Positions 16,160 through 34,906 of a stretch of 64,000 bases of DNA are shown here, piece by piece; positions within the stretch are counted from its first letter, which is position 1, and each line of letters opens with the position of its first letter. This stretch comes from an uncultured cyanobacterium (GTDB lineage Bacteria; Cyanobacteriota; Cyanobacteriia; PCC-9006; JAAUQQ01), in contig OY970368.1 in the NCBI GenBank assembly GCA_963718615.1, positions 544,001 to 608,000 on the forward strand, given 5' to 3'. A program made the translations under genes and the position numbers. The notes under the pieces were generated by a model, which saw nothing but the letters and a program-made list of their open reading frames with translations, made no database searches and was not told the origin of the DNA.

Positions 16160-17092
16160 ATGAACCTCTCCCAAATCCGCGCCGTGATTGCCGTCGCTGA
16201 GCAGAAAAACTTCAGCGCGGCTGCCCTGGAATTGGGTCTTTCGCAATCCGCAGTCAGCCACGCGATCGCCACTTTAGAACAGGAACTGGGTGTGACGTTG
16301 TTTAGTCGCGGTCGGTATGGAGCGGTGTTAACGCCAGCGGGCGATCGCATTGTTCAGCAAGCCCGCTTGGTCCTCAATCATTTAAATAACATGACCCTCG
16401 AAGCCTATAAACATCGAGGGTTGGAGGGTGGGGAGGTTCGTGTCGCCACCTTTCGCAGCGTTGCCACCCATCTGTTACCTCAGGTGATTGTCCAGTTTAA
16501 CCAGCAGTTCCCCGACATTACGGTCACGCTCATTGAGCGGGAACATTACATCGCGATCGAGCATTGTCTACGCCATGGAGAAGCTGATATTGGCTTTACC
16601 TATCACACCGCAGAAACGAACGATTTAGAAACTTTTGAAGTTATTCACGACGAATACCTTGCCCTTTTCCCACCGACAATTCAGGCTCCCCCGGAAAGAC
16701 TAACCTGGGAAGATTTTACAACGATGCCAATTTTACTGGTTCCTTGTTTACCCTGCGGAATCGGTCTGCATCAGCACCTCACGCAACATGCTCCGCAGTT
16801 AGCCACGAATAGTTCCATTCGAGAAGACTCGACTGCTGTTAGCATGATCCACCGAGGGCTCGCCATCGGCATTTTTCCTTGGCTGGCAGCAGAACCAATT
16901 CCCCCCGTAATTCACCGCCGTTCGCTTCCCGTCCCTCATAAGCGAGTCATCATTGCAGCCCGCGTAATCGATCGGCTTCATTCTCCTGCAGTTTTTGCCT
17001 TTTGGGAAGAATTGCAGCGTCATGCTCCGTTTCCCCATCGATTATTAGCATCCCAGGGCCCTATCGAACCTCATCCCATCAAACTAAATTGA
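16160..17092 (+). CDS. LysR family transcriptional regulator
   Basis: MNLSQIRAVIAVAEQKNFSAAALELGLSQSAVSHAIATLEQELGVTLFSR HTH; divergent from the GST gene; true start ATG 16160. Confidence 0.93.
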   Translation: MNLSQIRAVIAVAEQKNFSAAALELGLSQSAVSHAIATLEQELGVTLFSRGRYGAVLTPAGDRIVQQARLVLNHLNNMTLEAYKHRGLEGGEVRVATFRSVATHLLPQVIVQFNQQFPDITVTLIEREHYIAIEHCLRHGEADIGFTYHTAETNDLETFEVIHDEYLALFPPTIQAPPERLTWEDFTTMPILLVPCLPCGIGLHQHLTQHAPQLATNSSIREDSTAVSMIHRGLAIGIFPWLAAEPIPPVIHRRSLPVPHKRVIIAARVIDRLHSPAVFAFWEELQRHAPFPHRLLASQGPIEPHPIKLN

Positions 17093-18557
17093 AATCCTCT
17101 AGTCGAATTCGTTTGACTTGTCGAGCATATTTCCAGGTAAAATCAGGCCAGTTATTAATCACTTTACCCGATTCATTTTTGTACCAGCTTTGACAGCTAG
17201 AGCTCCACACCAGTCGCTGCATATCCTCTTGTAGCTTGGCGTTATGGTTGGCCATCACCTCTGACTTAACATCTAAATATTTTAGATTTTTTTGCTTGAT
17301 GAGCTGTAGCAATTGAACAATATAGTCAACCTGTTTTTCAATCATATAAACAATTGAACTATGCCCTAATCCCGTATTCGGCCCAAAGAGCAGAAAGAAA
17401 TTAGGAAAACCAGAAACCATCATGCCAAAATAAGCCTCTGGACCCATTTTCCAAGCCTGGGAAAGCATTTTTCCAGCCACCCCTTCTAGCTGGATGGGAT
17501 GCAAAAATGCATTAGATTTAAAGCCTGTACCAAAAATAATCACATCCACAGGATACTGCTTACCATCCGCTGTAATAATTTCCTTTGGAGTGACTTTGGC
17601 TATCCCATGACTAATGACCTCAACAGTTGGTCGGGCTAAAACTTCATAATAATCATTGGAAAGCAAGATCCGTTTACAGCCAACGGTATATTCGGGTAAT
17701 AACGAATCGTCAAGATTTACTTTTTTTAGTCGACTTAAGATTTTCTGAGTTAGCCTTTGCTGAAATAGTTTTCCGGAAAGCGTCCCCTGGAGAAAAACTC
17801 TAAATCGCATCTCTAAGGTCCAATAAATCCAAAAACGGCGCAGCGCTGGAGCCCAAGGAAAATGATGATTCAACCACTGCTCAACGGACGAGAAGTTATT
17901 GTTGCCTTTTGTCGCAACCCACTGGGGCGATCGCTGAAAAATATAGGTTTTAGCCGCTTTTTCCGCAACCGGGGGAACAAATTGAACGGCACTAGCCGCA
18001 TTACCCACCACAGCCACCGTTTTGCCCTGCAAATCACATTGATGATCCCAGCGCGCTGAATGAAACTGAGTTCCGGCAAATTGGTTCAATCCTTCGATGG
18101 CAGGTATGGAAGGATGATGCAGTTGTCCACAGGCCGAAACCAAAAACTTGGTGTAAAAGATTTGCCCCTGAGAGGTTATCACTTGCCATTGACCATCCGT
18201 CTCTTGAAAAACCGCTTGAGCAATTTCAGTTTTAAACTTGATATGGGCATAGAGCCCATATTTGCTGGCACAATGTTCCAAATACTCTAGAATTTCAGCC
18301 TGCTCGGCATAGCGAAATGACCAATCTTTCTTTTGCTCAAAGGAGTAGGAGTACAAAAAAGAAGGCACATCACAGGCAGAACCTGGATAATGATTATCTC
18401 GCCAAGTTCCTCCAACTCGGCTTTCCTTCTCGCAGATTATAAAATTATCGATCCCTGCTTGCTTCAGACGAATGCCCATGCATAAACCAGCAAACCCAGA
18501 ACCAATAACAACAGCATCTAGAGTACTGATTGAACTAGTAGAGTCATTAGAAATCAT
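17079..18557 (-). CDS. Type I Baeyer-Villiger-type flavin monooxygenase
   Basis: GSGFAG FAD motif, GGTWRDNHYPGSACD, fingerprint FAGTQFHSARWD (FxGxxxHxxxW), VGNAASA NADPH motif, GCKR. Confidence 0.9.
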   Translation of the reverse strand: MISNDSTSSISTLDAVVIGSGFAGLCMGIRLKQAGIDNFIICEKESRVGGTWRDNHYPGSACDVPSFLYSYSFEQKKDWSFRYAEQAEILEYLEHCASKYGLYAHIKFKTEIAQAVFQETDGQWQVITSQGQIFYTKFLVSACGQLHHPSIPAIEGLNQFAGTQFHSARWDHQCDLQGKTVAVVGNAASAVQFVPPVAEKAAKTYIFQRSPQWVATKGNNNFSSVEQWLNHHFPWAPALRRFWIYWTLEMRFRVFLQGTLSGKLFQQRLTQKILSRLKKVNLDDSLLPEYTVGCKRILLSNDYYEVLARPTVEVISHGIAKVTPKEIITADGKQYPVDVIIFGTGFKSNAFLHPIQLEGVAGKMLSQAWKMGPEAYFGMMVSGFPNFFLLFGPNTGLGHSSIVYMIEKQVDYIVQLLQLIKQKNLKYLDVKSEVMANHNAKLQEDMQRLVWSSSCQSWYKNESGKVINNWPDFTWKYARQVKRIRLEDFNLV

Positions 18558-18591: not shown

Positions 18592-19488
18592 TCAATTCGA
18601 TGGATCAGAGGGAAACTCGGTCATCAACCAATCCACTAACAGCTTTTGGTATGTTTCTGTACATTCTGCAAAAAACATATGACCCACCCCCGGCAATAAC
18701 GTTAAGGTCGTATTCGGAACCTCCTGAGCGATCGCCAGGGCCTGTTGCATCGGGATAAGAGGGTCTTGCTCACCCGCAACAACAGCCAATGGGGCCTGAA
18801 TCTTTTGCAACAAAGGGCCAATATCCATCTCTCTCAGCCCCGCAAACAAATAGAGCAAATGATCTAAATTGTGCCGAGCTGCATCAAGTCGCATAGGCTC
18901 TAAGGTTTCTGACAAGACGGAAGCCTTAAAATAAGCACGACGGTTCGCTGCATTCAAGGCAGATGCAATTCGGTATCTGCGCGAATTAGAGGCACCAAAA
19001 CGGAGGATCCCCTTAAATAATAAACGACCCGGCAGAGGACCACAAGCTAGCTTTTGTAAAAAACCAAACAAGCCAGTCCAGGCTCCCTGATAAAACCCTG
19101 AAATGCAGAGGACAGAGCGAATTTGCTGGGGTCTCAGAGCTGCCAAAAGCAAGGCAGCAAAGGCTCCTGTAGAATGGCCCACGACCATAACGGGCTGATT
19201 ACCTACAAGCTGACCAATCGCCGTGCCTAAAACCTGTGCAAACATTTCCGGTGTCACACGGGCTGGGCCGAAGTCCTCGGGAGCGATCGCCGGAAAATGT
19301 CCAGGCAAACTCAGGGAGTACCAAGGATAGTTCTGCCGAATTTCTGCCGGTAGACTCGGGGGCCAAAAGTGGATCGAAGCCGTGATGCCATGTAAAAAAA
19401 TAATGGGAGGACCAGGCTTGCTGGGGTTGCCCGCGATCGCGACCAAGCGATGTTTTTCTACTTCCAACTCGATAAGATGCTGTTCCAT
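18592..19488 (-). CDS. Alpha/beta-fold hydrolase (esterase-like)
   Basis: FLHGI oxyanion motif, GHSTG nucleophile elbow, GEQD acid, GVGH His. Confidence 0.88.
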   Translation of the reverse strand: MEQHLIELEVEKHRLVAIAGNPSKPGPPIIFLHGITASIHFWPPSLPAEIRQNYPWYSLSLPGHFPAIAPEDFGPARVTPEMFAQVLGTAIGQLVGNQPVMVVGHSTGAFAALLLAALRPQQIRSVLCISGFYQGAWTGLFGFLQKLACGPLPGRLLFKGILRFGASNSRRYRIASALNAANRRAYFKASVLSETLEPMRLDAARHNLDHLLYLFAGLREMDIGPLLQKIQAPLAVVAGEQDPLIPMQQALAIAQEVPNTTLTLLPGVGHMFFAECTETYQKLLVDWLMTEFPSDPSN

Positions 19489-19548: not shown

Positions 19549-21354
19549 CTATTGCTGATCGCTCAAATCCTGTTCAGATAGACCTAAGACGCTATTTCTA
19601 ATACCAAAAACATTGGTCGGATCGTTGGCATCTTTAAGCTTTTTGATCAAGCTTAAACTGGTCGGCGAGACCGTATCTTTTAGAAAATCCTTACGAAGCT
19701 TACCAACACCGTGGTGATGGGAAATAGAGCCCCCATTTTTTAGAATAGTTTGCCGCAGCGCATAGTGAATTTTATTCAGGATTTCTTCAGCATGGGGAAC
19801 ATCTTTGGCGTAGAAGCCATTCATAAAGTATATACAGACACCAGTATGATAGATTTGCGAAATTCGATAGGATAAAAACGGAGAACCCGGAAGATTGTGC
19901 TGTTGATGCTGCACTTGTAATTCTTCTCGGACCTGATGCACAACTTCATGAATCTTGCTCCAAGGAACTGTTGTTTCGAAGGTTTCACCTAGAATATGGA
20001 GCGAAGCTAGAAAGTCCCGAATATAGGCGATCGCAAACGTCAGATTGTATCCCCGTTTGCCATTAGTTGAACCACCGGAAACAGCTCCAAATTTTTTAGC
20101 CAGTTGATTAATACTTGTTTTTTGATACGCGACTTCTGGGGCAGTCCCCTCCATCACCAAGGTTGCTGCCACCATCTCACGCGGTTCAAACTTAAGAACA
20201 TCATGGAGATAGAAAAACTTTGCTTTATTCTTCCACTTTGCTTTAGGAGTTTCAGTTGATCTTAACGCTTGTCCAAACTGAAACTGTCCATTGTCAACCA
20301 GGCGAACACTGGCCGGTATAAAGTTAGTTTGTGACAGTTCTCGTAAAAACTCAACCCCTTTTGCTAAGGTGGGAAATACTAAGGAACCATAATGCTGAAC
20401 ATCGGGTAATCGATGGATTCGAATAATGGCTTTGGTGATGAGGCCCAAATTCCCTTCACTACCAAAGAGCAGTTGCTGCAATTGCATCCCCATCGACATA
20501 CGTGGACAAGCGATTTTTTGCTCAACCAGTCCCATAGGGGTAAGCAACGTAACACTCTCCACAACCTCTTCAATATTGCCATAGCGGTTTTTTTTCATGC
20601 CGCTAGCATTGGTCGAAATCCATCCCCCTAAGGTCGAGAGCTCTAGGCTATCGGGCTCATGACCACAGGTAAAACCTGCCTCTTTTAGGGTTTCTTCTAA
20701 CTGAGTTCCAGTAATCCCTGCTTGCACACAGGCTTGCATGTTTTTAGCATCAATCCATTCCACTTTATTCATTCTTTTGGTGTTGACGGCAACGATCATG
20801 CGCGTCTCCTCAGCGGGCAACATTAAAGCCCCACTGACACAGGTTCTGCCCCCAACGGGAACCAAACAGACATCAAACTGAAGCGCCAACTGAATCAATT
20901 GCTCGGCATCTGATTCTGATTCACAGAAAAAAACCATATCTACCCCACGGGGCAGTTGCTCAAAAAGCACTGGAAAAATTTCTTCCGCACCAGCTTGTCC
21001 GTGACTATGGCTCAGCCGCACAGAATCATCAAACGTGTAGGTATGCGGCGGAAAATGCTTTGCGATCGCCTCACAAAATCCTTCATTGCAGTGGGGAGGC
21101 GCGATGGGCTTCTCTTGCACCTCTGTCCGCAGGTCATTGAGATCCAAGGATACCCCTAGCCCCTTCTCTAGATAGGGCAAAAGATAGGGCATAGAATAGC
21201 CGCAAATCTGATAACGATCGCCAGTGAGGCTAACCTCACGCGTCTCAGGATTAACTACAAATTCCGTGTCTGAATATCCCCAACGATGCGACCAAAGCCC
21301 GCTGCCGTCCGACTGAGAGAGGTTTTCCATTTCCGAATTTTGAGTTTTGAACAT
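19549..21354 (-). CDS. Alkyldihydroxyacetonephosphate synthase (AGPS/ADHAPS)-like FAD oxidoreductase
   Basis: [112 protein letters not shown], all matching eukaryotic AGPS motifs. Confidence 0.9.
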   Translation of the reverse strand: [601 protein letters not shown]

Positions 21355-21544: not shown

Positions 21545-22207
21545 TCAACGAACCATGATTTTCTGCGAGCCCGTAAAGGTTCGATAGTGAGGCTGATCGG
21601 CGATCGCAAGCAACTCAGAGTCACCTTTGCTATCGCCATAGGCATAAAGATAATATTGCTGCAAATCACCTAACAAAGCTGTTAAACGAATAACCTTTTC
21701 TTTTCCATAACAACTATCTCCGAGCAGTTTTCCCGTGATTTTATCCTGTTCAACCGCGAGCTGAGTCGCAATGACATCGTTAATGCCGAGCCTTATTGCC
21801 CAAGGTCGAAGATAAACCTCTAAGTTTGCACTGACCACCACCACACGATGCCCTTGAGCTTGATGCCAAGCCAATCGCTCCATCGCCTGGGAATTGAGTA
21901 ATTTGGGCAATGTCACCTCAGAAAACTGAGCCGCCGCTGCTTGTAGGTCTGGCAATGACCAGCCTCGAAAATATTGGGTAACGAGGGTTTCTTTGATAAA
22001 GTGGTTTGAGCAACGACCTAAAACATAGGAAATCACGGCACGGCGTTTCTTCAACAAACCTTGACGCATTTTTTGGGCTGTACAAGCCGACTTCACAAAC
22101 GGTAAAAACGAGTCTTTCCGGGTCAATGTGCCATCAAAATCAAAGACCGCGATGGTCGGTCGCTGAACGAGATTCGACATGGAAATAGAAGGCGAAGAAT
22201 CTAGCAT
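21545..22207 (-). CDS. HAD-IB family phosphatase
   Basis: FDFDGTLT motif I, VVSA motif II, K..R, YGDSKGD motif IV; start possibly 22180. Confidence 0.9.
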   Translation of the reverse strand: MLDSSPSISMSNLVQRPTIAVFDFDGTLTRKDSFLPFVKSACTAQKMRQGLLKKRRAVISYVLGRCSNHFIKETLVTQYFRGWSLPDLQAAAAQFSEVTLPKLLNSQAMERLAWHQAQGHRVVVVSANLEVYLRPWAIRLGINDVIATQLAVEQDKITGKLLGDSCYGKEKVIRLTALLGDLQQYYLYAYGDSKGDSELLAIADQPHYRTFTGSQKIMVR

Positions 22208-22244: not shown

Positions 22245-23036
22245 TTACAGGGTTTGGGCAAGCGGTAATGGCTGAGATGAAGTATCAGCATTCGCCATCT
22301 CCTCAATTCTAGAACGAATTTCGTCCACAATCTCGCGGCAGAGTCTTCGATTGCTCTCGACCTCCAATCTCGCTTGATAGGGCGCAATATCAATCGGACG
22401 ACCAAACTGAATACGAATAGGATGTCGTTTGGGAAAATGCGCCCCTTTAGGAAAAGCCTGAAAACTTCCTTCAATATGAACCGGTATAATTGAGACATTG
22501 AGCTGCATTGCCAAAAAACCAGTCCCGAGCTTAAACGGCTGTAGTTTCCCTGTTTTTGAGCGTGTCCCCTCCGGAAATAGCAAGATCATTTTATTTTGAG
22601 CGACAAGATCCTGACAAGACTTAAGCGCATCTGTCGAATGGCCCTGTCGCTGAAAGGGGATCATGTTTAAAACATGTTGGCAAATTTTCCCTTTGATAGG
22701 ATGATCAAAGAAATAATCCTTGGCTGCCAAGCTATAGACCTGATTCATATAGCGATTTGCTGCGGCAATAGTTGCTGGCCCATCCAAATGACTAGAATGG
22801 TTGGCCGCCAAGAGAACAGGTTGATCCTTAGGAAGGTTATCTAAACCTTCGATTTTAAGCTGAAACCACATGCGCAGAATAAACTGGCACATGTACCAAA
22901 TCAAAGCCTGTAGGACAGGATTAAGAATTCTTTGAAATAAGACAATACTTAATTTTTGATGAAGATTAGGAGCTAACCCAAAATTTGCCGAAAGCGTAGT
23001 CTTCAGGGGAACCATCAATTTTAAGGGAAGCATCAA
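22245..23036 (-). CDS. PlsC-family lysophospholipid / glycerone-phosphate acyltransferase
   Basis: ANHSSHLD (HxxxxD) and FPEGTRS motifs, IIPVHI, IQFGRPI. Confidence 0.9.
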   Translation of the reverse strand: MMLPLKLMVPLKTTLSANFGLAPNLHQKLSIVLFQRILNPVLQALIWYMCQFILRMWFQLKIEGLDNLPKDQPVLLAANHSSHLDGPATIAAANRYMNQVYSLAAKDYFFDHPIKGKICQHVLNMIPFQRQGHSTDALKSCQDLVAQNKMILLFPEGTRSKTGKLQPFKLGTGFLAMQLNVSIIPVHIEGSFQAFPKGAHFPKRHPIRIQFGRPIDIAPYQARLEVESNRRLCREIVDEIRSRIEEMANADTSSQPLPLAQTL

Positions 23037-23279: not shown

Positions 23280-24263
23280 TCAAGTCAAATTTTTTCTCAC
23301 CCAGTCGCCGGTTGTAGCCATTCCTTCTTCTAGATTAATTTGAGGCTGATACCCTAGCCGATGACGTGCTTTTTCGATCGAATAGGGATAACGTCGTGTA
23401 GAAATATCAATTGTGTCCGCAGTGGCTCCTATTTTGTTATTAGGAAAAAGTTTTAAGATTATTTTTGCCAGTATTGCAGGAGCTGAAGGGTATTTTGGTA
23501 AATTTTCGATTTTTGCGAGTCTTTGATAATAGTCTTTCCAAGTCGTTTCACAGCCATCGGTGATATTGAAGGCTTCACCATAGGCTTCCTGCTCAAGGGC
23601 AAGAAAGATAGCGTCCACTAAATTGTCCACATAGACGTGGTTCATGACGCCTCGACCATTATTGAGCAGGAAGAACTTACGCGATCGCATCATCTCCAAA
23701 GGACGAATCACCCAGGGCACAGAGCGAGGACCATAGACATCTCCCGCTCGGATGACAATGACCCCAAAGTCCGGTGGGTTGTTGAGGGCTAGAACTTGCT
23801 GATCAGATTCTAGTTTTGTGAGGCAGTAAGGATTTTTACCCTGATAAAACGGTCCAGACTCCGTTACATACTTGGGATATCGAACCCCATAAACCACCAC
23901 GCTAGAAAGCTGAACAAAGGCTTTAACCTTGGCCTGTTTTGCAGCATGGGCCATCGTTAAAGTGCCTTCTACATTCACTTTGCGGAACTCCGCTAGGTCC
24001 CCTTCTTCTTTTACGATCGCAGCCGTATGAATAACCAGATCTATATCCTTACAAGCCCTGTGGGCAATTTCTGGATCAGTCACGCTACCTGCGATCATTT
24101 CGATGCCAAGCCGTCCTGCCAAATCGCTGGTATCTGGCGATCGCTGTAGTCCTCTAACCTTGATGCCTCTGGCTACAGCCAACTCCGCAATTCGCTGTCC
24201 AATACAACCACCAATACCCGTAATCAACAGAGTTTTATGACTTAGGTCCATAAATAACCACAA
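23280..24263 (-). CDS. Extended SDR, NAD-dependent epimerase/dehydratase (3-beta-HSD-like) family
   Basis: ITGIGGCIG, HTAA, LSSV, YCLTK (YxxxK), VYGP, YVDNLV. Confidence 0.85.
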   Translation of the reverse strand: MWLFMDLSHKTLLITGIGGCIGQRIAELAVARGIKVRGLQRSPDTSDLAGRLGIEMIAGSVTDPEIAHRACKDIDLVIHTAAIVKEEGDLAEFRKVNVEGTLTMAHAAKQAKVKAFVQLSSVVVYGVRYPKYVTESGPFYQGKNPYCLTKLESDQQVLALNNPPDFGVIVIRAGDVYGPRSVPWVIRPLEMMRSRKFFLLNNGRGVMNHVYVDNLVDAIFLALEQEAYGEAFNITDGCETTWKDYYQRLAKIENLPKYPSAPAILAKIILKLFPNNKIGATADTIDISTRRYPYSIEKARHRLGYQPQINLEEGMATTGDWVRKNLT

Positions 24264-24458: not shown

Positions 24459-24986
24459 TCAGGTTCGTTCCTTGATTGCCTGAATGACTTGAGCCGTGCA
24501 ATCTTCTAGACTGGTTTCCTGGGTCTTGCACTCCACCTCAGGATTGAGAGGGGGCTCATAGGGATCATCAATGCCAGTGAACTGCTTAATCTCTCCAGCC
24601 CGCGCTTTTTTGTATAAACCCTTGACATCCCGTGCTTCGCAGACTTCCAAGGGAGTACTGACATAGACCTCAATAAAGGCATCAATCTGAGCCCGGATCT
24701 CTTCTCGAATCGCACGGTAGGGCGAAATCACCGGCACCAGCACAATGACGCCGTTTCGAGCTAGGAGTTTGGTGACAAATCCAATCCGGCGGATATTCGT
24801 GTCCCGGTCTTCTTTACTAAACCCAAGGTCTTTCGTCAGTCCTTCGCGGACGATGTCACCATCAAGGACCTCTACTCGATATCCTTGCGATCGCAGTTGT
24901 TGCTCGACTTCAGCGCAAATCGTTGATTTTCCAGAACCGCTTAAACCTGTAAACCAAACTGCAAGACCTTTATGAAAATTGCTCAT
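24459..24986 (-). CDS. cysC: Adenylyl-sulfate kinase (PAPS supply)
   Basis: WFTGLSGSGKST P-loop, LDGDIVR, DLGFSKEDRDTNIRRIG, ISPYR, RDVKGLY, FTGIDDPYEPP. Confidence 0.96.
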   Translation of the reverse strand: MSNFHKGLAVWFTGLSGSGKSTICAEVEQQLRSQGYRVEVLDGDIVREGLTKDLGFSKEDRDTNIRRIGFVTKLLARNGVIVLVPVISPYRAIREEIRAQIDAFIEVYVSTPLEVCEARDVKGLYKKARAGEIKQFTGIDDPYEPPLNPEVECKTQETSLEDCTAQVIQAIKERT

Positions 24987-25382: not shown

Positions 25383-26234
25383 ATGAAAGTAGCTATTCTT
25401 GCAGGTGGTCTGGGAACGCGGCTAGAGGAAGAAACCACAGAAAAACCAAAGCCAATGGTTGAGATCGGTGGAAAACCGATCCTGTGGCACATTATGAAGC
25501 ACTATTCCCATCATGGGTTTGATGACTTTGCGATCGCCCTAGGCTACAAAGCAGAAGTCATCAAAAAATACATGGTGGACTATTGTTCCCTCAATAGTAA
25601 TCTTACGGTCAACCTCCGCAACGGCACCGTCCAGCGCCACGATGGCAACAGCCCCAACTGGAATATTGACTTGATCGATACGGGACTCCATACCAATACC
25701 GGGGGACGCATCAAGCGCTTGGCTCCTTACCTCGGTAATGAAACCTTCATGTTGACCTGGGGGGATGGGGTTTCCGATCTGGACATCAATCAGTTGCTGG
25801 CATTCCATCGTTCCCATGGTAAACTCGCGACCCTCACAGCGGTTCATCCCCCTGCTCGGTTTGGCCATTTGGATCTTAATGGGGCTCAGGTGACGGAATT
25901 TTCTGAAAAGCCCCAAACCCGTGAAGGATGGATTAATGGTGCCTTTTTTGTCCTAGAGCCTGGTATTTTTGACTATATTGACAGTGACGCAACCCAATGG
26001 GAAAAAGAACCGCTGGAGCGTCTAGCCCAAGATGGACAACTCATGGCCTATCAGTACCGAGGCTTCTGGCAATGTATGGATACCTTGCGGGATAAGCGCC
26101 GCCTAGAAAGTCTGTGGGCATCGGGAAACGCACCTTGGAAAACGTGGGAGGAAAAGGATGAGAGTCTTACTAACCGGGCATCTGGGATACATTGGAACCG
26201 TAATGGTTCCCCTGTTGCTCGCCAAGGGGCATGA
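25383..26234 (+). CDS. rfbF: Glucose-1-phosphate cytidylyltransferase
   Basis: ILAGGLGTRL.EET..KPKPMVEIGGKPILWHIMK, TGGRIKR, TWGDG, WINGAFF, GFWQCMDTLRDK, APWKTW. Confidence 0.93.
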   Translation: MKVAILAGGLGTRLEEETTEKPKPMVEIGGKPILWHIMKHYSHHGFDDFAIALGYKAEVIKKYMVDYCSLNSNLTVNLRNGTVQRHDGNSPNWNIDLIDTGLHTNTGGRIKRLAPYLGNETFMLTWGDGVSDLDINQLLAFHRSHGKLATLTAVHPPARFGHLDLNGAQVTEFSEKPQTREGWINGAFFVLEPGIFDYIDSDATQWEKEPLERLAQDGQLMAYQYRGFWQCMDTLRDKRRLESLWASGNAPWKTWEEKDESLTNRASGIHWNRNGSPVARQGA

Positions 26235-27180
26235 GGTTGTTGGCCTCGACAGCGATCTCTTTCGCGGCAGTACCTTTGGGGGGGGGATTTGCCCCATTCC
26301 AGAACTGCGGAAAGATATTCGGGACGCTGTCGCAGCGGATCTAGAGGGCTTCGACGCAGTGCTTCACTTGGCCGGGTTATCCAACGATCCCCTCGGTCAT
26401 TTTAATCCTCAGCTCACGGATGAAATTAACCATCTCGCGACGGTACGGCTAGCGGAATTGGCCAAAGCCGCAGGGGTATCTCGGTTTGTGTTTTCTTCCT
26501 CTTGCAGCAACTATGGCGCGGGCGGGCAGGACTGGCTGACGGAGGACTCCCCCCTCAATCCGATGACCCCCTACGGTCGGTCCAAGGTTGACTCAGAGCA
26601 TTCGCTCAACCAGATGGCGGACGATCGCTTTAGTCCCACCCATCTGCGCAATGCCACGGCCTTTGGAGCCTCTCCCCGAATTCGCTTTGACCTGGTGCTG
26701 AATAATCTGATGGCTTGGGCTTTCACCACAGGTCGGGTCTATATCAAAAGCGACGGCACACCTTGGCGACCGATTGTGCATATCGAAGACATTGGTCGAG
26801 CCTTTATTGCGGTCATGGAAGCCCCTCGGGACAAGGTCCATGGTGAAGCCTTTAATGTGGGCCGTAATCAGGATAATTATCGCGTGCGCGAGATTGCCAA
26901 CATTGTCCAAGCCACGGTACCGGGCTGCGAAATTGAGTATGCGCCCGATGGCGGACCGGGGCCGAGCTGCTACCGCGTGGATTGCAGCAAGATCCAACGG
27001 GTGTTGCCGGAGTTTCAGCCCCAGTGGGATGCTTGCAAAGGGGCAAAACAACTTTATGAAACCTTCCAGAAAGTGGGGTTAACCCTCGAAGAATTTGAGG
27101 GACCAAAATACAGCCGAATCGCTCATGTGCGATCGCTCCTGCAATCCGGCAGTCTAGGAGATCAGCTCCGCTGGCGCTAG
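26158..27180 (+). CDS. NDP-sugar epimerase/dehydratase (extended SDR)
   Basis: TGHLGYIG, HLAGLSNDP, SSSCSNYG, YGRSK, LRNATAFG, WRPIVHIED; RBS GGAGGAAAAGG upstream of the ATG. Confidence 0.88.
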   Translation: MRVLLTGHLGYIGTVMVPLLLAKGHEVVGLDSDLFRGSTFGGGICPIPELRKDIRDAVAADLEGFDAVLHLAGLSNDPLGHFNPQLTDEINHLATVRLAELAKAAGVSRFVFSSSCSNYGAGGQDWLTEDSPLNPMTPYGRSKVDSEHSLNQMADDRFSPTHLRNATAFGASPRIRFDLVLNNLMAWAFTTGRVYIKSDGTPWRPIVHIEDIGRAFIAVMEAPRDKVHGEAFNVGRNQDNYRVREIANIVQATVPGCEIEYAPDGGPGPSCYRVDCSKIQRVLPEFQPQWDACKGAKQLYETFQKVGLTLEEFEGPKYSRIAHVRSLLQSGSLGDQLRWR

Positions 27181-27237
27181 CGCCATTCATCTATATAAAC
27201 CTCATAAACCTTCTATAACTATCCCTCTCACCCTTCT

Positions 27238-28467
27238 ATGGATAATCCCAACGTCGCCTGTCACGCCTGCAAAAATCCCCAGCTTGATTTGATTCTTTCC
27301 TTTGGAAAGACCCCCCTAGCGGACGCGCTGCTATCCGCTACCCAGTTGCAGGAGCCAGAAATTTTTGCGCCGCTGGACTTAGCCTTTTGCCCCCAATGCG
27401 GATTGGTTCAAATTACCGAAGTTATCGATCCAGAAATTCTCTTTTGCCGAGACTATCCTTACTATTCGTCCGTTTCCAAATCCTTGATGGAGCACTTTGA
27501 AGCGAGTGCTAAGGCCCTCATCTTGGCTAGAAATTTGACGCAAGCGAGCCTCGTGGTTGAAGCCGCCAGCAATGATGGTTACTTACTCAAACACTTTGCC
27601 CAATCGGGAATTCCGGTTCTGGGCATCGACCCCGCTGAGGGGCCGGTTCAAGTGGCTCAGGCCGCTGGGATTCCGACGCTCCGCACTTTTTTTGGTGAAG
27701 AACTTGCCCAGCAGTTGCGCCAAGCGGGCAAGCGGGTGGATGTCTTTTTGGCCAATAATGTTTTGGCCCATGTACCTGATCTCAATGGCTTTGTCGCAGG
27801 GATTTCTCTACTCCTCAAAGACAGCGGCGTCGCGGTGATTGAAGCACCCTATGTCGTCGATTTGGTGGAGCAAGGCGAATTCGATACGATTTACCATCAG
27901 CACCTTTGCTATTTCTCTGTCACCGCCCTGGATCGGCTCTTCCGTCGCCATGGGCTCTTTCTCAACCGGATCGAACGCACTTCTATCCATGGGGGCTCGC
28001 TGCGGCTTTTTGTGGAACCCCGAGAGGCGGTGGAAGCATCGGTAACGGCGCTCTTGCAAATGGAACAGGCGCAGGGGGTCGATCGACTCGATTATTATCA
28101 TGATTTTGCAGCGCGGGTGGCGATGATTAAGCGATCGCTCCTCACCCTCCTTCAAGATCTCAAACATCAGGGTAAACGCATTGCGGCCTACGGCGCAGCG
28201 GCAAAGGCGACCACCCTCTTGGCCTACATCGGTCTGGATCAGCAGTATCTAGACTACGTGGTTGATCTCAATCCCTATAAACACGGACGCTATATGGGCG
28301 GCAACCATTTACCAATTTTCCCACCTAGCAAACTCCTGGAAGATCAGCCGGATTACGTATTGATTTTGGCCTGGAACTTTGCAGAGGAAATTATGCGACA
28401 GCAATCTACCTATCGTGACCAAGGGGGACGCTTTATCGTGCCAATTCCTGAGCCCCAGATTATCTAA
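27238..28467 (+). CDS. NDP-hexose C-methyltransferase (TcaB9/NovU/TylC3-like), paralog 1
   Basis: N-terminal Zn motifs CHAC and CPQC, EAASNDG SAM motif, [34 protein letters not shown]. Confidence 0.88.
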
Positions 28468-28553
28468 CTTATCTAACTCTAACCCTCACCGATCTGGCTC
28501 AGCGCCACTGCGAACCGATTCAGCCTCTCCACTCAATTCTAGGAGCTCTGCCC

Positions 28554-29780
28554 ATGACTGTTGCGTCTGCCTCTGCGCCCCATCTCAGCACTTCGGACAA
28601 TGATCGCCCCATCTCCTGCCCCAACTGCGGCCATGATGACCTCACGCCGTTCTACGAAGTCCTAGATGTGCCGGTCCATAGCTGTTTGATGATGCCAAGC
28701 CCCGCCGCAGCTCTAGACTTTCCACGGGGTGATGTCAAGCTAGCCGTTTGCAACCACTGCGGTTTTATTACCAATACGGCATTTGATGCCAAGTGGTCTG
28801 CCTATGCTCCCAATTATGAGGACCAACAGAGCTATTCACCGACCTTTAATCAATTTGCCCAGGACCTCGCCCAGCGGTTAATCGACAAGTACGATTTGCA
28901 CAATAAAGACATCGTTGAAATTGGCTGTAGCAAAGGCGACTTTCTTTTGTTGCTCTGCGAATTGGGCAATAACCGTGGTGTTGGCATTGACCCATCGGTT
29001 GTCCCTAGACGGGTGCAAAGTGAGGCCGCCGATCGCGTCACCTTTATCCAAGACTACTACTCCGAAAAGCATGCCGAATATGTCGGCGATTTTATCTGTT
29101 GTCGCCACACCCTAGAACATATTCAGCCCACACAAGAATTCCTCAAAACCGTACGGCAGTCCATTGGCGATCGCCTGCATATCAACGTATTTTTTGAAAT
29201 TCCTGAAACCCTGCGTGTGCTTCGAGACCAAGCCTTCGAAGACATCTACTATGAGCACTGCTCGTACTTCACGCCGGGTTCCTTGGCCCGACTGTTTCGA
29301 GCCTGTGGGTTTGAAATCACGGACCTCTACCTAGGCTATGGGGACCAGTACTTGCTGATTGAAGCCCAACCCATGGCCACGCCTTCCACAACCCTTCATG
29401 CCCTTGAGGAAAGCCCTGAAGCTACAGTCCAGGAAGTTCAAAACTTCGTACATAAAATCACAGAGAAGTTGAACTATTGGAAAGATCACTTAGCAACTAT
29501 GCAGCGCCAGGGAAAACGCGTTGTGGTTTGGGGCTCAGGCTCAAAATGCGTTGCGTTCCTGACAACGCTCAATACCCTGGACCAAGTGCAACATGTGATC
29601 GACATCAATCCCCACCGTCACGGCCAATTTATTCCAGGGATTGGCAAGGAGATCAAGCCCCCAACGTTTTTGAAAACCTATCAACCCGATGAGATTATTG
29701 TCATGAATGGGATCTACTGCGCTGAAATCCAGCAAATGCTAGACGAAATGGGCGTTCAAGCTCAGCTTACCCCTTTATAA
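28554..29780 (+). CDS. NDP-hexose C-methyltransferase, paralog 2
   Basis: CPNC and CNHC Zn motifs, EIGCSKG SAM motif, RHTLEHI, IYYEHCSYF, WGSGSK, DINPHRHG. Confidence 0.85.
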   Translation: MTVASASAPHLSTSDNDRPISCPNCGHDDLTPFYEVLDVPVHSCLMMPSPAAALDFPRGDVKLAVCNHCGFITNTAFDAKWSAYAPNYEDQQSYSPTFNQFAQDLAQRLIDKYDLHNKDIVEIGCSKGDFLLLLCELGNNRGVGIDPSVVPRRVQSEAADRVTFIQDYYSEKHAEYVGDFICCRHTLEHIQPTQEFLKTVRQSIGDRLHINVFFEIPETLRVLRDQAFEDIYYEHCSYFTPGSLARLFRACGFEITDLYLGYGDQYLLIEAQPMATPSTTLHALEESPEATVQEVQNFVHKITEKLNYWKDHLATMQRQGKRVVVWGSGSKCVAFLTTLNTLDQVQHVIDINPHRHGQFIPGIGKEIKPPTFLKTYQPDEIIVMNGIYCAEIQQMLDEMGVQAQLTPL

Positions 29781-30083
29781 CAGTCACCAATCTTTAATTT
29801 TATGAATCCTTAACAGAGGCCCGAGCTGGTATGTACTTAACGTAAAGGGAAAAGCATTAGATCGGGATTTCCACTAGAATGATCTATGAATTGAACCATT
29901 CAATAATGCCACCATCAATCTCAATCCTACCTCAAAATCTTTGATTGGTTTATTTCAGTACATCCCGGTCTAATCAGGCGTTATCTGTAAACTTACACTT
30001 CTGACTAAAATACCGATCCTCTATGTTTCTGATTGAGAGACATATGCTGTTGGCCTGAGTCAGAAAGGAATACTTATTTAACT

Positions 30084-31379
30084 ATGCGAGTTGTCATTTT
30101 AACGGTTGGCTCAAGGGGTGACATTCAACCCTGTCTCGCCCTAGGATTGGGGCTCAAAGCTGCCGGTCATCAGGTTTGCATTGCGACCGAGCGAATTTAC
30201 CAGGAGTGGCTGACCCAAGAAGGATTGGAGTATGCCTACCTCCCAGGGGATACTAAAAAGCGTCTGGCGGATGAACCTTGGTTTAAATTACTAGAAGAAA
30301 CGCGCGATCGCCCCATTCTATCGGCCTATCGTGCCTATCGTGAGTTTCTCTTACCAACACTACGGGAGCTGCTCGATGCCGCCTGGGACGCCTGCCAAGG
30401 GGCAGACGCAATTATTGGCCTACCCACGGTCTATGCCGGTAGCCACATTGCCGAGAAGCTAGGAATTCCCTTCTTTGGCACTTGGACCTGCCCCTTCACC
30501 CCTACCCGATATTTTCCCCATTCCTGGTCCCGTCTCGCCCAGCAACAGTGGCTAGGTGGAACACTCAATCGGTTTACCTATTGGGTTCCTCAGTTTCTCG
30601 ATCAGAAAATGTTGATGGGGACCATTAACCAATGGCGCAAAGAGACCTTGAATCTGCCTAAAATGGGTGAAAATGGCGTCAATACCAGTTCCTTCCCGAC
30701 GCTTTATGGATTTAGTCCCAGCGTCGTCTCCCCGCCTCCAGACTGGGATAACAATGTTCATGTAACGGGCTACTGGCTGCTCAATCGCATCAGCTCGGTG
30801 CAGCCCCCCGAAGACTTAGTTAACTTTATTGCGGCAGGCTCCCCACCGGTTTACATCGGTTTTGGGAGTATTGGCGATCGCCATGCCACACACACCATTC
30901 AAACCGCAATTGATGCGGTGATCAAAAGCGGTCAACGGGCCGTTCTAGAAACAGGATGGGCACAGTTAAATCAACTCAATTTACCCCCACAGGTTTTTAA
31001 GTTAGATTCTGGCAGAGTTCCTCATGCTTGGCTCTTTCCCCGCATGGCAGCGTTAGTCCACCATGGCGGCGCAGGTACCACCGGTCAGGGGTTGCGCAAC
31101 GGCAAGCCAACGGTCGTTATTTATCAAAAATTTACGGATTACTGTTTCTGGGGACAACGCATTGCCGCATTGGGTGTTGGTCCTGAACCGATTTATATTG
31201 GTGATGTCACCGTCAATTCCCTCGCCCAGGCCATTGAAACCATGGTAACGGACGCCAACATGCAGAAGCGCGCAGCTCTACTAGGTGGACAAATTCGAGA
31301 CGAAGATGGTGTTGCTCGGGCGATCGAGCTCTTTCATCAGCATGCTAATCACCCAAAAGCCACCTATACCTATGCCTAA
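30084..31379 (+). CDS. GT1-family glycosyltransferase (sterol glucosyltransferase-like)
   Basis: GSRGDIQP, TPTRYFP, PPPDW, VTGYW, YIGFGS, PHAWLFPRMAALVHHGGAGTT; start at ATG 30084. Confidence 0.92.
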   Translation: MRVVILTVGSRGDIQPCLALGLGLKAAGHQVCIATERIYQEWLTQEGLEYAYLPGDTKKRLADEPWFKLLEETRDRPILSAYRAYREFLLPTLRELLDAAWDACQGADAIIGLPTVYAGSHIAEKLGIPFFGTWTCPFTPTRYFPHSWSRLAQQQWLGGTLNRFTYWVPQFLDQKMLMGTINQWRKETLNLPKMGENGVNTSSFPTLYGFSPSVVSPPPDWDNNVHVTGYWLLNRISSVQPPEDLVNFIAAGSPPVYIGFGSIGDRHATHTIQTAIDAVIKSGQRAVLETGWAQLNQLNLPPQVFKLDSGRVPHAWLFPRMAALVHHGGAGTTGQGLRNGKPTVVIYQKFTDYCFWGQRIAALGVGPEPIYIGDVTVNSLAQAIETMVTDANMQKRAALLGGQIRDEDGVARAIELFHQHANHPKATYTYA

Positions 31380-31478
31380 GCGTAAAGATTGCATGAATGA
31401 CCTGAGTGAATGACGTTGCTACAGACCTTCACGACATAACATAATTTCGTTGCACCTAGGCCATTTTTTGGAAACTCC

Positions 31479-32270
31479 ATGAGTCACTTCGACACCATAT
31501 CAAAAAAGGCATTGTTCGTCGTTGCTCATCAAGATGACGAAGTTTTTATTGTGTCTAGGATCAACAAACATTTAAGCGAGGGCGATCGAATCTTTGTTAT
31601 CTGGACTGCAGCATCCTATCAAAAAGGAGAAACCTTTAAAAATACGAGAATCCAAGAGTCAAAGACTCTGATGAAAAAGCTCGCAATTCCCGAAGATCAA
31701 TTTGATTTCCTCATGTATCCCGATGGTTCAACCCATCTCCACATTCCCAATCTCATTGCAGACTTAAAGCAAAGAATTCAGTTCATTCAACCCGATACGG
31801 TTTATATTCCAGCCTATGAGGGAGGGCACATTGACCATGACACAGCGCATTACTGCGTGGTTCAAGCCATCCGTCAGCTCAATTCCAGTATAGAAATCTA
31901 CGAATTTCCAGAATACAGCGGCTATGGAACTCCACTGGGCCTACTGCCGCTTCGAATGCGCCGCTACCCCGAGACACTAAAGACCCAATGTAGAACGCTC
32001 TCCCAGGAAGAATATCATTTGGTTTTAGACTGTTGGAAAATCTTCAAAAGCCAGCATTTTCCTTTGGATTTGTACATTACTTTATCCGCAGGAAAAAATC
32101 TAACTTTTGGTAGAGAATACATTCGACCTCTACCCGAGTATAACTATCTAGAGATACCCCCGACGCAAAAAGTTGCCTATGAAAAGTATCTAGATGTGAA
32201 TTATAGCGACTTTAAACAAGCCGTTGAACAACAGCTCAACCTATCAATATTTTTATCTACAACCCAATAG
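31479..32270 (+). CDS. PIG-L/LmbE family deacetylase
   Basis: AHQDDE and GGHIDHD metal motifs; RIQES, YPDG. Confidence 0.85.
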   Translation: MSHFDTISKKALFVVAHQDDEVFIVSRINKHLSEGDRIFVIWTAASYQKGETFKNTRIQESKTLMKKLAIPEDQFDFLMYPDGSTHLHIPNLIADLKQRIQFIQPDTVYIPAYEGGHIDHDTAHYCVVQAIRQLNSSIEIYEFPEYSGYGTPLGLLPLRMRRYPETLKTQCRTLSQEEYHLVLDCWKIFKSQHFPLDLYITLSAGKNLTFGREYIRPLPEYNYLEIPPTQKVAYEKYLDVNYSDFKQAVEQQLNLSIFLSTTQ

Positions 32271-32421
32271 AGCTAGTAATACTTTGAGGCTACGCTGACA
32301 AGCCAAGTCGCCAAGCACACCCCTACGCTTTTTCTTTTCACCTATGCTCTGCCGGACCTAGCTATTTCTAAAGTCTACATCTAGTCATTGACCTACAACC
32401 TTAAAAGAGCATTATTTTAAA

Positions 32422-33681
32422 ATGATTCAATTAGCAAGTCTCTTTTTATTTTTATTTTTAATTCCAACCTTTTTCGTGGTGCAATCCACTTATAAATTTG
32501 TTCGATTTCTTAAGCGATCGCCTCAGCCCATAGCACTTCAAGACGGCAAACTTCCCTCAGTTGCGATTGTGATGAGCGTTCGAGGACTAGATCCATCCTT
32601 AAAAGATTGTATCCACTCTTTATTGACTCAAGATTATCCCAATTATCTTATAAAGATTGTTGTGGATAGTAAAGAAGATACAGCCTGGGACTTGTTGCAC
32701 CAGATTAGTCAAGACGCTAGTCACGGAAACATCGAGCTACTGCTTTTGAACGTTCGTTATGACACCTGTGGATTGAAGTGTAGTGCCCTCATTCAAGCCA
32801 TTTCTCAACTTGATCCAGATTTAGATGTTGTAGCTTTTATCGATTCAGATGTTATCGCTCATCCAACTTGGCTACGGGAACTCGTCACGCCTCTCGCTAA
32901 TCCTAAAGTGGGTTTAACGTCTGGTCTTCCATGGTATCTACCGAAAGAAGAAAATGTTGGTTCTCTAGTTCGCTATCTCTGGAATATTTATGGCGTTACA
33001 GGCCGATATATCTGTCGAACGCCTTCAGGTGCTTCCATGGCGATTCAGCGTCATCTACTCACTCAGGAGAAGATACTAGGTGTTTGGCAAAAAGTGCTCT
33101 CAGAGGATATTACCGCCGCTGTAATGATCGAAGATGAAGGATTAGAAATCCAATTCATCCCTTCTCTTATCATGGTCAATCGAGAGAGCTGTACATTACA
33201 GGGCTGCTGGCAGTTTGTAAAACGCCAGTTCTTCTGGACTCGTCTCTATAGTCCCCAATGGACTTTTATCGCGACTCAGGCTTTTTTTCGCCTTATCGTA
33301 CTACTTTCCGCAGCTCTTTTATTACCAATTTCCTTGTTAAAAGGAGATTCTCTCACCACAATGGTTGTAATTGGGGGACTTGCGATCTATTTTGTATCGA
33401 TTGGAATCTCTATTTTTTCAATTCAGAAAAATGTGCAAGGAAAGCTAATTGAAAGGGGAGAAGTTCTTGCTCCTTGCTCAGCATTTGTTTTTCCAAAGCT
33501 TGTCTTTTCTTTTTTGATTGCACATCTAATTGTTCTTGGAGGAACCCTTTCTGCATTAGGCATGCAAAGCATTCAGTGGCGGGAAATCAATTATCAAATT
33601 GAGAACAAGCTAGATATCAGAATGTTAGAGTACTCCCCTTACAAAGGTTCTAATCCAAAGTCAAATGCATCTATTTTATAA
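32422..33681 (+). CDS. Membrane GT2/GT21 glycosyltransferase (ceramide glucosyltransferase/HpnI-like)
   Basis: N-terminal TM; LLTQDYP, CGLKCSAL, FIDSD (DxD), SED, KRQFFW (QxxRW-like); C-terminal TMs. Confidence 0.87.
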   Translation: MIQLASLFLFLFLIPTFFVVQSTYKFVRFLKRSPQPIALQDGKLPSVAIVMSVRGLDPSLKDCIHSLLTQDYPNYLIKIVVDSKEDTAWDLLHQISQDASHGNIELLLLNVRYDTCGLKCSALIQAISQLDPDLDVVAFIDSDVIAHPTWLRELVTPLANPKVGLTSGLPWYLPKEENVGSLVRYLWNIYGVTGRYICRTPSGASMAIQRHLLTQEKILGVWQKVLSEDITAAVMIEDEGLEIQFIPSLIMVNRESCTLQGCWQFVKRQFFWTRLYSPQWTFIATQAFFRLIVLLSAALLLPISLLKGDSLTTMVVIGGLAIYFVSIGISIFSIQKNVQGKLIERGEVLAPCSAFVFPKLVFSFLIAHLIVLGGTLSALGMQSIQWREINYQIENKLDIRMLEYSPYKGSNPKSNASIL

Positions 33682-34736: not shown

Positions 34737-34906
34737 AAAAGCTCTCCGGTTCTAAGCTAAAAGTATCACCAGACAGCTCCCAGGAGAGCCATAGCCCAAG
34801 CGACTCGTGAGGCCTTTATTTGCATCGCCACGATTCGCATCATGCTCCGACGTTTGGCATCATTCTCCACACCTTCACTACTTCTCAAATCCCCCTCTAA
34901 CTTTCT

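Follow-up and report, generated by a model that had tools for sequence, protein, structure and literature searches.

A putative bacterial-clade alkyl-DHAP synthase of a cyanobacterium lies in a cluster with hgl-like lipid synthase, sugar and sulfation genes

Bacterial alkyl-dihydroxyacetone-phosphate (alkyl-DHAP) synthase, also termed alkylglycerone-phosphate synthase (AGPS), is already known from Myxococcus and from metagenome-assembled genomes (MAGs) of many phyla. In Myxococcus xanthus, AGPS forms an operon with a fusion of a fatty-alcohol-forming reductase (FAR) and GNPAT and with an NAD-epimerase, and AGPS deletion blocks that ether-lipid route, as described in the accessible text of a preprint (10.1101/2025.10.10.681575). 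Further Agps homologues have been described from MAGs of Desulfobacterota, Chloroflexota, Marinisomatota, Proteobacteria, Verrucomicrobiota, Myxococcota, and Latescibacterota (PMC11868695), from symbionts of sponges (preprint 10.64898/2026.06.23.733905), and from genomes that also encode Ger homologues (PMC13159169). Here, we analyzed an AGPS gene on a 64,000-nucleotide stretch of DNA from an uncultured cyanobacterium (contig OY970368.1, positions 544,001 to 608,000; hereafter the window), where the operon containing this gene lies inside a roughly 45 kb cluster that also encodes an hgl-like lipid synthase and sugar and sulfation enzymes. This embedding of AGPS is new as far as our literature searches showed. 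We found no publication on AGPS of oxygenic cyanobacteria (supplementary tables, which lay outside the search, may list hits) and none joining AGPS to a Pfa/hgl-like synthase. In the accessible text of the M. xanthus preprint, which deals with a myxobacterial origin, the string “cyanobacteri” is absent, and the accessible text of a paper on secondary lipid synthases (PMC13291983) mentions neither ether nor AGPS.

We consider the best overall explanation, at a probability of about 0.55, to be that a bacterial AGPS, its gene cassette and the hgl-like synthase make a glycosylated, possibly sulfated 1-O-alkylglycerol lipid. Since the ether-bond cassette sits with the hgl-like synthase and with sugar and sulfation genes, the locus suggests recruitment of AGPS from membrane-lipid synthesis into specialised lipid synthesis. 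This cluster context was absent from an earlier reading of the same DNA (the sequence-only reading) and is the more interesting part of the locus than the enzyme itself.

Like the window gene, M. xanthus Agps (MXAN_1676, in the operon MXAN_1674-1676) is a bacterial AGPS accompanied by an acyltransferase function and by an NAD-dependent epimerase-fold protein. However, FAR and acyltransferase are fused in M. xanthus and adjoin AGPS, whereas the window contains a stand-alone acyltransferase, an inserted HAD phosphatase and a candidate reductase only at a distance of 22 kb, next to a polyketide-type synthase. The Myxococcus-type fused FAR-acyltransferase beside AGPS, which is present in Myxococcota and Gemmatimonadota loci, is not in the window operon, and the window AGPS belongs to the other major bacterial subclade of our tree than that of Myxococcus. 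AGPS cassettes of Marinimicrobia, Actinomycetota, Latescibacterota, and Acidobacteriota have the same core, consisting of AGPS, acyltransferase, FAR, and a short-chain dehydrogenase/reductase (SDR). These cassettes of other phyla are compact, with three to five genes, and are read as membrane-lipid pathways; none was seen inside a synthase, sugar and sulfation cluster.

Eukaryotic AGPS (or ADPS; EC 2.5.1.26; structures 4bby and 2uuu) shares with the window enzyme its domain layout, an Arg/Arg/Tyr set and a His triad and, by analogy, would share the expected FAD-N5 adduct mechanism. As described in the accessible text of PMC3509576, ADPS follows ping-pong kinetics: with Tyr508 as the base, a carbanion forms an adduct at FAD N5, the fatty acid is released, and the alcohol then makes its attack. 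The two enzymes differ in that identity is only about 40%, the guinea-pig protein has about 70 extra N-terminal residues, and the window gene stands in an operon. They may also differ in the alcohol used, which in the window could be a very long hydroxylated chain and not hexadecanol.

The synthase part of the cluster compares best with hgl-like islands, defined as at least seven clustered homologues of Anabaena hgl genes. According to the accessible text of PMC11804610, such islands occur in 35 of 2,279 non-heterocytous cyanobacterial genomes, are tentatively tied to C24 1,3-diols and their glycosides, and outside heterocytes have products that are largely unknown; no word beginning with “ether” or “sulfotransferase” appears in that text. 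Likened by domains alone, the window synthase has the same domain series and order as hgl and hgl-like islands, namely KS-AT-ACPn, SDR, KR-DH, KS-CLF-AT, PfaD-type ER, ACP, and thioester reductase. Unlike those islands, it shares its cluster with an AGPS cassette, an APS kinase, three sulfotransferases, and four methyltransferases, two of which are C-methyltransferases. We found no hgdB/hgdC ABC-type exporter among the scanned open reading frames (ORFs) of at least 150 aa between 15 and 61 kb, where an MFS transporter is present instead. The 1,3-diols attributed to such islands are fatty alcohols and so would be suited as the second AGPS substrate, and the window offers a candidate product for hgl-like islands outside heterocytes.

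The AGPS reading frame and its catalytic residues

The gene at the center of this analysis is as follows.

19549..21354, minus strand: AGPS (alkyl-DHAP / alkylglycerone-phosphate synthase), 601 aa, assigned from structure-chain alignments, conserved residues and the tree

The reading frame is intact over all 601 aa, without interruption, and contains both a VAO/PCMH-type FAD-binding domain (Pfam FAD_binding_4, PF01565, residues 139-277, 5e-32) and a C-terminal cap domain (FAD-oxidase_C, PF02913, residues 317-583, 2e-35). Pfam detected only these generic FAD-oxidase domains, and NCBIfam only GlcD-type models far under their cut-offs. More specific matches came from phmmer against PDB chains, where guinea-pig AGPS (4bby_A) matched at E 2.2e-144 with 485 bits and Dictyostelium AGPS (2uuu_A) at E 1.2e-80. 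The best non-AGPS chain was a glycolate oxidase (2.9e-18, 69 bits), aligned only from about residue 148, and alignments to GlcD-type chains started only at about residue 140 and reached at most 69 bits. Residues 23-587 of the window protein aligned with residues 94-656 of 4bby_A, a span that includes the AGPS-specific part ahead of the FAD domain. Because of the 485 versus 69 bits and the full-length alignment, the match is far above chance and wider than the FAD domain, which bears out what the sequence-only reading had claimed for the comparison with mammalian AGPS. The motifs quoted there ([76 protein letters not shown], CIYF) are all present in the translation; the mammalian strings set against them proved near but inexact, as the guinea-pig chain has GGWISTRASG and AYMRD. 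In the PDB-chain alignment, the first approximately 70 residues of the 658-residue guinea-pig chain have no counterpart in the window AGPS, and we take this extra N-terminal stretch to include the peroxisomal presequence.

Mutagenesis of the Dictyostelium enzyme identified R352, Y508, and R447 as important for catalysis (PMC3509576, accessible text). In the 2uuu chain, these residues are found at indices 349, 505, and 444, each 3 below the published number, and they align with window R351, Y509, and R446, respectively. The window residues occur in the contexts PASVRL (R351), AYIRDF (R446), and CIYF (Y509), with H546-H548 in SHHHGVGK. Relative to 4bby, the two mutant guinea-pig entries are changed at precisely the equivalents of R351 (His in 4bc7) and Y509 (Phe in 4bca); from this alignment and the mutant PDB entries, the guinea-pig numbering is R419, Y578, and H615-617. 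H546-H548 are identical in both solved AGPS chains, and the His-His-His loop presumably adjoins the flavin. When 27 diverse homologues were aligned, R351, Y509, and H546-548 proved invariant and R446 at least 90% conserved. Alignment to both 4bby and 2uuu confirmed that the substrate-binding Arg, the catalytic Tyr and the His triad are kept, as had been proposed. We consider it very probable from these sequence comparisons that the ORF encodes a functional, bacterial-clade AGPS with true AGPS chemistry. The earlier proposal of ether-bond chemistry appears sound on AGPS family membership, on the mutagenesis-defined residues and on the partner enzymes encoded next to the gene.

The operon, the surrounding cluster and the proposed pathway

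AGPS stands fifth in a run of co-directional genes that, in transcription order, encode APS kinase, extended SDR, acyltransferase, HAD-IB phosphatase, AGPS, hydrolase, and monooxygenase. The genes flanking AGPS in this run are listed below.

24459..24986, minus strand: APS (adenylyl-sulfate) kinase, 175 aa, first of the run (PF01583, 3e-67; NF002059 above cut-off)
23280..24263, minus strand: extended SDR (NAD-dependent epimerase/dehydratase fold), 327 aa, candidate acyl/alkyl-DHAP reductase (PF01370, 1e-35)
22245..23036, minus strand: stand-alone PlsC/GPAT-type acyltransferase, 263 aa, candidate DHAP acyltransferase (GNPAT role) (PF01553, 3e-27)
21545..22207, minus strand: HAD-IB family phosphatase, 220 aa, with DxDxT as FDFDGT, candidate 1-O-alkyl-glycerol-3-phosphate phosphatase by presumed substrate (PF12710, 2e-38; TIGR01490 above cut-off)
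18592..19488, minus strand: alpha/beta-fold hydrolase, 298 aa, directly downstream of AGPS (Pfam Abhydrolase_6, Abhydrolase_1)
17079..18557, minus strand: type I Baeyer-Villiger / flavin monooxygenase (BVMO), 492 aa, last of the run (Pfam FMO-like, Pyr_redox_3; PtlE-like NCBIfam under cut-off)

The run probably contains a four-gene ether cassette. The window acyltransferase, in which we take HSSHLD as the HX4D motif and FPEGTRS as a second acyltransferase motif, shares 35% identity (E 9e-35) with the AGPS-fused acyltransferase domain of the homologue P0121 and 43-48% with acyltransferase genes or domains adjoining AGPS in other cyanobacteria. HAD genes likewise adjoin AGPS in Dulcicalothrix, in the genome G524 and in two Terriglobia loci, and a HAD domain is fused to FAR in the locus L047. 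APS kinase stands beside acyltransferase and AGPS in the sister genus G003 (82% identity) and would supply 3′-phosphoadenosine 5′-phosphosulfate (PAPS) to the sulfotransferases of the cluster. A Pfam scan detected no FAR-type (alcohol-forming) reductase within the operon. Scanning 16.5-25.6 kb for promoter and terminator consensus sequences gave no excess over shuffled sequence (12 versus 14.7 and 12 versus 9.1) and was uninformative on operon boundaries.

Partner genes of the same kinds were found at AGPS loci of other genomes. We tallied partners by domain-wise phmmer at 83 such loci, of which 80 had an AGPS ORF (L061, L071, and L089 were excluded), and counted a partner as near when it was fused to AGPS or within three ORFs of it. 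Near AGPS we observed FAR-type reductases at 30 of the 80 loci, acyltransferases at 28, classical SDRs at 22, extended SDRs at 7, and HAD proteins at 5, with at least one partner at 48 loci. Among 430 ORFs farther out in the same loci, FAR, acyltransferase, HAD, and extended SDR were each found 0 times and classical SDR 11 times. A tblastn scan of neighbours at 1e-8 was insensitive for acyltransferases and SDRs, and in single-linkage clustering of neighbour ORFs, multidomain fusions chained AGPS, acyltransferase, FAR, SDR, and HAD into one cluster. Natural fusions with AGPS include acyltransferase-AGPS (P0121, 810 aa), FAR-acyltransferase-AGPS (P0144, 1387 aa), AGPS-SDR (L056:7791-10838), and ACBP-(aminotransferase-like)-FAR-acyltransferase-AGPS (P0137, 2247 aa). 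In Dulcicalothrix desertica PCC 7102, the neighbours of AGPS on its two sides are FAAL-ACP-reductase, FAAL-ACP-acyltransferase, and HAD genes, and G524 has the gene order FAAL-ACP-reductase, acyltransferase, HAD, AGPS. These arrangements agree with the M. xanthus operon.

Some further features of these loci were noted in passing. Among the listed cluster representatives, many are of 1300-2700 aa with AGPS at the C-terminus. In five loci of Marinimicrobia and relatives (L023, L028, L032, L050, and L053), a conserved ORF of about 385-403 aa lies directly upstream of acyltransferase-AGPS-SDR. Two Acidobacteriota loci of the Chloracidobacterium type (L074 and L075) have BVMO genes a short way upstream of AGPS, separated from it by few genes, L046 has a weaker match upstream, and the window BVMO lies two genes downstream of AGPS; these numbers (1 near versus 2 far) are too small for an association. 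We considered BVMO and hydrolase as an alcohol route, from ketone over ester to alcohol, and rejected it on this absence of enrichment near AGPS and on the absence of both genes from the G003 contig described below.

Beyond the operon, the cluster comprises the following blocks and genes.

25383..37158, plus strand: sugar and tailoring block (by Pfam, nucleotidyltransferase, 4,6-dehydratase-like epimerase, two C-methyltransferases, GT28/MGT-type glycosyltransferase, PIG-L deacetylase, GT2, 253-aa protein, MFS transporter, sulfotransferase)
37232..43656, minus strand: tailoring block (by Pfam, two Sulfotransfer_3, class I methyltransferase, TylF-type O-methyltransferase, 438-aa protein, classical SDR)
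43669..45114, minus strand: stand-alone thioester reductase, 481 aa, candidate fatty-alcohol-forming (FAR) step (NAD_binding_4; TIGR01746, 355 bits)
45129..45476, minus strand: ACP-like ORF, 115 aa, immediately upstream of the thioester reductase (GLDSAKA motif)
45764..61426, minus strand: hgl/Pfa-like secondary lipid synthase of five genes, recognized by its domain series and given singly (by Pfam) in the next five lines
55013-61426, minus strand: PfaA-like KS-AT with 4 PP-binding stretches
54003-54773, minus strand: FabG-like SDR
52212-53939, minus strand: KR-DH
47459-52141, minus strand: KS-CLF-AT
45764-47410, minus strand: PfaD-family enoyl reductase

The thioester reductase is a candidate for the alcohol-forming step that the operon itself does not encode. 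It is the strongest NAD_binding_4 gene of the genome (246 bits in the genome search), and the only other strong FAR-type gene of the genome lies at 5.30 Mb. The reductase domain adjacent to AGPS in Dulcicalothrix has its best match in this genome in the window thioester reductase (51%, 414 bits; runner-up 42%, 295 bits), which is also 50% identical to its counterpart in G524. We take the small ORF beside it to be an ACP from a motif that we associate with such proteins. The classical SDR at 42757-43656 could be the alkyl-DHAP reductase instead; as it is only 25% identical to an SDR fused to AGPS, its orthology with such SDRs is uncertain.

Several features of the cluster genes stand on their own. 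On the minus strand at 52212-61426, the PfaA-type synthase is split into KS-AT (4 PP-binding) and KR-DH, with the FabG-like SDR gene between them; in the accessible text of PMC13291983, uncharacterised cyanobacterial Pfa-like pathways are reported to be split in a comparable way, around an NAD(P)-binding protein. The three sulfotransferases (36238-37158, plus strand; 37232-38338 and 40177-41295, minus strand) share a single cluster. Identity between the two Sulfotransfer_3 copies is about 49%, and the genome has two further paralogues of them near 0.315 Mb and 5.68 Mb. The 438-aa protein (41353-42669, minus strand) and the 253-aa protein (33975-34736, plus strand) match no Pfam family and are kept on the G003 contig at 56% and 74% identity, respectively. 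Just outside the cluster are genes for an RTX-type calcium-binding repeat protein (14231-15163, plus strand; 7 HemolysinCabind stretches) and a DUF697 protein (12532-14109, plus strand).

In the sister genus G003, 24 of the window cluster genes have homologues on one 61.9 kb contig, at 56-86% identity and in changed order. AGPS, acyltransferase, and APS kinase lie at one end of this contig, and the HAD and extended SDR genes lie about 16.7 kb from them, between sugar and tailoring blocks. All genes of the sugar and tailoring block at 25383..37158 except the 36238 sulfotransferase are found there at 64-86%, and the tailoring block at 37232..43656 is kept at 56-81%. Homologues of KS-CLF-AT, KR-DH, SDR, and PfaD are present at 65-83%; the PfaA homologue failed our length filter. 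None of the genes flanking the cluster in the window occurs on the G003 contig.

For the catalytic steps, the alcohol source and the final product, we propose the following scheme. The PlsC-type acyltransferase would make acyl-DHAP, which AGPS would bind. By analogy with the studied enzymes, Tyr509 would then take the pro-R hydrogen at C1, and the carbanion would add to N5 of oxidised FAD. The fatty acid would leave, and attack by a long-chain alcohol would give 1-O-alkyl-DHAP. The SDR may reduce its keto group to give 1-O-alkyl-glycerol-3-phosphate, from which the HAD-IB phosphatase would strip the phosphate. The alcohol would most likely come from the hgl/Pfa-like synthase with the ACP and thioester reductase, 22 kb off in the same conserved cluster; we give this origin an even chance. 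The alkylglycerol could then be glycosylated by two glycosyltransferases with a methylated deoxy-sugar and possibly sulfated by the three sulfotransferases, with PAPS provided by the APS kinase of the operon. A product that is both glycosylated and sulfated is a tentative proposal, which we hold somewhat less probable than its opposite. Somewhat more doubtful still is an undescribed lipid class in which a very-long-chain alcohol or 1,3-diol is ether-linked to glycerol by AGPS and then carries a C- or O-methylated deoxy-sugar and one or more sulfates. If such a lipid exists, it would be a bacterial counterpart of the sulfated ether glycolipids of animals and might serve as an envelope or gas-barrier lipid in an N2-fixing cyanobacterium. 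Its alkyl chain would be tied to glycerol by an ether, unlike the direct glycosylation of heterocyte glycolipids.

A number of observations weigh against this scheme. The synthase is 22 kb from AGPS, and its GC content is 56.6%, compared with 45.0% for the AGPS operon (7th percentile of 2-kb windows; genome 52.3%). The stretch at 16000-44000, which takes in the AGPS operon together with the sugar and tailoring genes and leaves out the synthase, has 38-49% GC in 2-kb windows except for 53.8% at 26-28 kb. Due to this gap in GC, the two parts of the cluster may have separate histories. The BVMO, the hydrolase and the 36238 sulfotransferase were not found on the G003 contig, and the G003 acyltransferase aligned over only 179 of 263 residues. 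Furthermore, the conservation of the cluster comes from a single related genus and could reflect shared ancestry rather than shared function. The island is also the only PfaD/PfaA-type (hgl/Pfa) island of this N2-fixing genome and might have an ordinary heterocyte-glycolipid-like role without an ether step. A myxobacterial-type SDR (from the locus L064) has its best match in this genome in a gene at 1.51 Mb and not in the operon SDR, so the reductase role of the latter, which we base on operon position and on the NAD-epimerase of M. xanthus, is weak. Finally, 32 of the 80 loci in the partner tally had no recognised partner near AGPS (some of these end at contig edges), and the tally was seeded in part with sequences of five of its own loci and of the window.

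Some of these observations would also be expected if the AGPS operon were self-contained and turned housekeeping fatty alcohols into plain ether phospholipids of the plasmanyl type or into alkylglycerols, with the sugar, sulfation and synthase genes as mere neighbours. The AGPS cassettes of most other bacteria comprise FAR, acyltransferase, and SDR and have no sugar or sulfation genes beside them, and both the difference in GC and the single-genus link at the level of the cluster are in line with independent parts. However, the window operon has no alcohol-forming reductase of its own, and the strong FAR-type genes of the genome are only the cluster reductase and the distant one. In addition, the operon starts with an APS kinase, which is sensible only together with the sulfotransferases of the cluster, and in G003 the cassette genes interleave with sugar and tailoring genes. 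We consider a self-contained operon possible and rather unlikely, and we prefer the glycosylated, possibly sulfated alkylglycerol lipid as the product of the combined cluster.

Placement among AGPS homologues and distribution in cyanobacteria

In a protein search, 4611 homologues at E <=1e-3 were found among 8000 candidates scored. The best 120 of these 4611 were 55-73% identical to the window AGPS, the window sequence aside, and the named entries among these 120 were cyanobacteria, Acidobacteriota, Anaerolineae, and Marinimicrobia. Homologues with E <=1e-30 formed 738 clusters at 50% identity, and at least 598 pattern hits were confirmed (598 of 600) in contigs representing one genome per species. 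By BLASTP, the window AGPS is 73% and 69% identical to two metagenome proteins (P0002 and P0003), 71% to that of G003, 57-60% to those of ten other cyanobacteria of the class, and about 43% to those of Myxococcota. Identities are lower for frog (40.5%), duck (39.6%), and the 13 sampled eukaryotes as a whole (38.5-41.7%), with vertebrate AGPS about 40% identical over about 568 residues. A set of divergent representatives is 28-31% identical, and a GlcD-like protein of the same genome is 23% identical.

We built a tree of 105 rows with IQ-TREE (LG+G4, quick search, SH-aLRT), with two GlcD-like proteins of the window genome as the outgroup. Five representatives about 30% identical to the window AGPS branch first, followed by a core AGPS clade (SH-aLRT 99). 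The window AGPS is inside this core clade and the GlcD-like proteins of its own genome are outside it; placement with GlcD-type oxidases, the outcome that would have undone the AGPS assignment, was not observed. Within the core, a branch with SH-aLRT 98 has all 85 bacterial rows on one side, and the 13 eukaryotes form an unresolved basal comb, a deep order that is not to be over-read under a quick LG+G4 model with very long outgroup branches. The window AGPS falls in a 51-row subclade (SH-aLRT 100) with Chloroflexota, Latescibacterota, Marinimicrobia, Acidobacteriota, and cyanobacteria, and its nearest rows are the two metagenome proteins, G003, a marine cyanobacterial MAG and one Pseudomonadota MAG. 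In the accessible text of the M. xanthus preprint, the AGPS signal is described as too weak to trace the eukaryotic origin of the gene (10.1101/2025.10.10.681575). Due to this weak signal, the quick model and the long outgroup, our claim covers only the place of the window AGPS among bacteria and not the root.

The core placement also bears on the idea that the window protein is an AGPS-like flavoprotein with another role, such as a redox or catabolic enzyme that acts on a small glycerol-type phosphate and forms no ether bond. Such a role could be read from Pfam and NCBIfam taken alone, which see only generic FAD-oxidase domains and sub-cut-off GlcD models. Against it stand the 40% identity to animal AGPS over about 568 residues, compared with 28-31% for the divergent group, the position in the core AGPS clade, and the retention of every mutagenesis-defined residue. 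The neighbours point in the same direction, as they encode an acyltransferase, a HAD protein, and an SDR, with no GlpABC, kinase, or Fe-S partner nearby. Considering all of these points, we regard a role outside ether-bond formation as very improbable, and AGPS chemistry in the service of lipid synthesis as the preferred interpretation.

The sequence-only reading had presented the enzyme as animal-like and had offered both gene transfer between eukaryotes and bacteria and a bacterial clade of AGPS as explanations. As judged from its sequence, the window AGPS is not especially animal-like, and the second explanation fits, with homologues in hundreds of bacterial genomes of many phyla at 57-73% identity versus about 40% for animals. 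Recent acquisition from an animal or another eukaryote, which might be read from the full-length similarity to mammalian AGPS and from an operon GC under the genome average, is barely credible given nearest relatives that are bacterial, the branch that sets the 85 bacterial rows apart, the rejection of a tree that forces the window AGPS to group with the 13 eukaryotes (log-likelihood 209.6 lower, p-AU 5.8e-8), the missing counterpart of the first approximately 70 guinea-pig residues and the place of the gene in a bacterial operon. The window AGPS adds little on the origin of the eukaryotic ether-lipid genes, as its bacterial subclade is distant from the eukaryotes.

The host genome is a single complete contig of 6.10 Mb with one AGPS copy. 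Because it has 19 matches to phycobilisome proteins and nifD above cut-off, we regard the host as a diazotrophic oxygenic cyanobacterium. Among sequencing runs, none of RNA was listed for this DNA, and five DNA runs each contained a share of at most 0.10 of its sequence words. AGPS matches at E <=1e-50 were found in 3 of 41 genomes of relatives (its own and two of one sister genus), and at E <=1e-100, 5 of 401 sampled genomes of the class had a match, its own included, indicating that AGPS is rare and patchy in the class. A sample of the phylum gave 10 of 401 genomes at E <=1e-100, again including its own. The other nine AGPS genomes of that sample are all from outside the window class, encode proteins 41-46% identical to the window AGPS and group with the Myxococcota/Gemmatimonadota type in the tree.

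Cyanobacteria with AGPS include Merismopedia, Planktothrix mougeotii, Nostoc sp. DedSLP04, Dulcicalothrix, and Caldora. Loci L006-L014, from other cyanobacterial classes (G041, G046, G052, G069, G072, G078, G094, G097, and G123), contain AGPS of the other bacterial subclade at 41-46% identity, and several have a FAR or FAR-acyltransferase gene directly downstream of AGPS. Another cyanobacterial AGPS homologue, L106 (G573:C52:20512-22230), is 57% identical to the window AGPS and has one in-frame TGA within the match.

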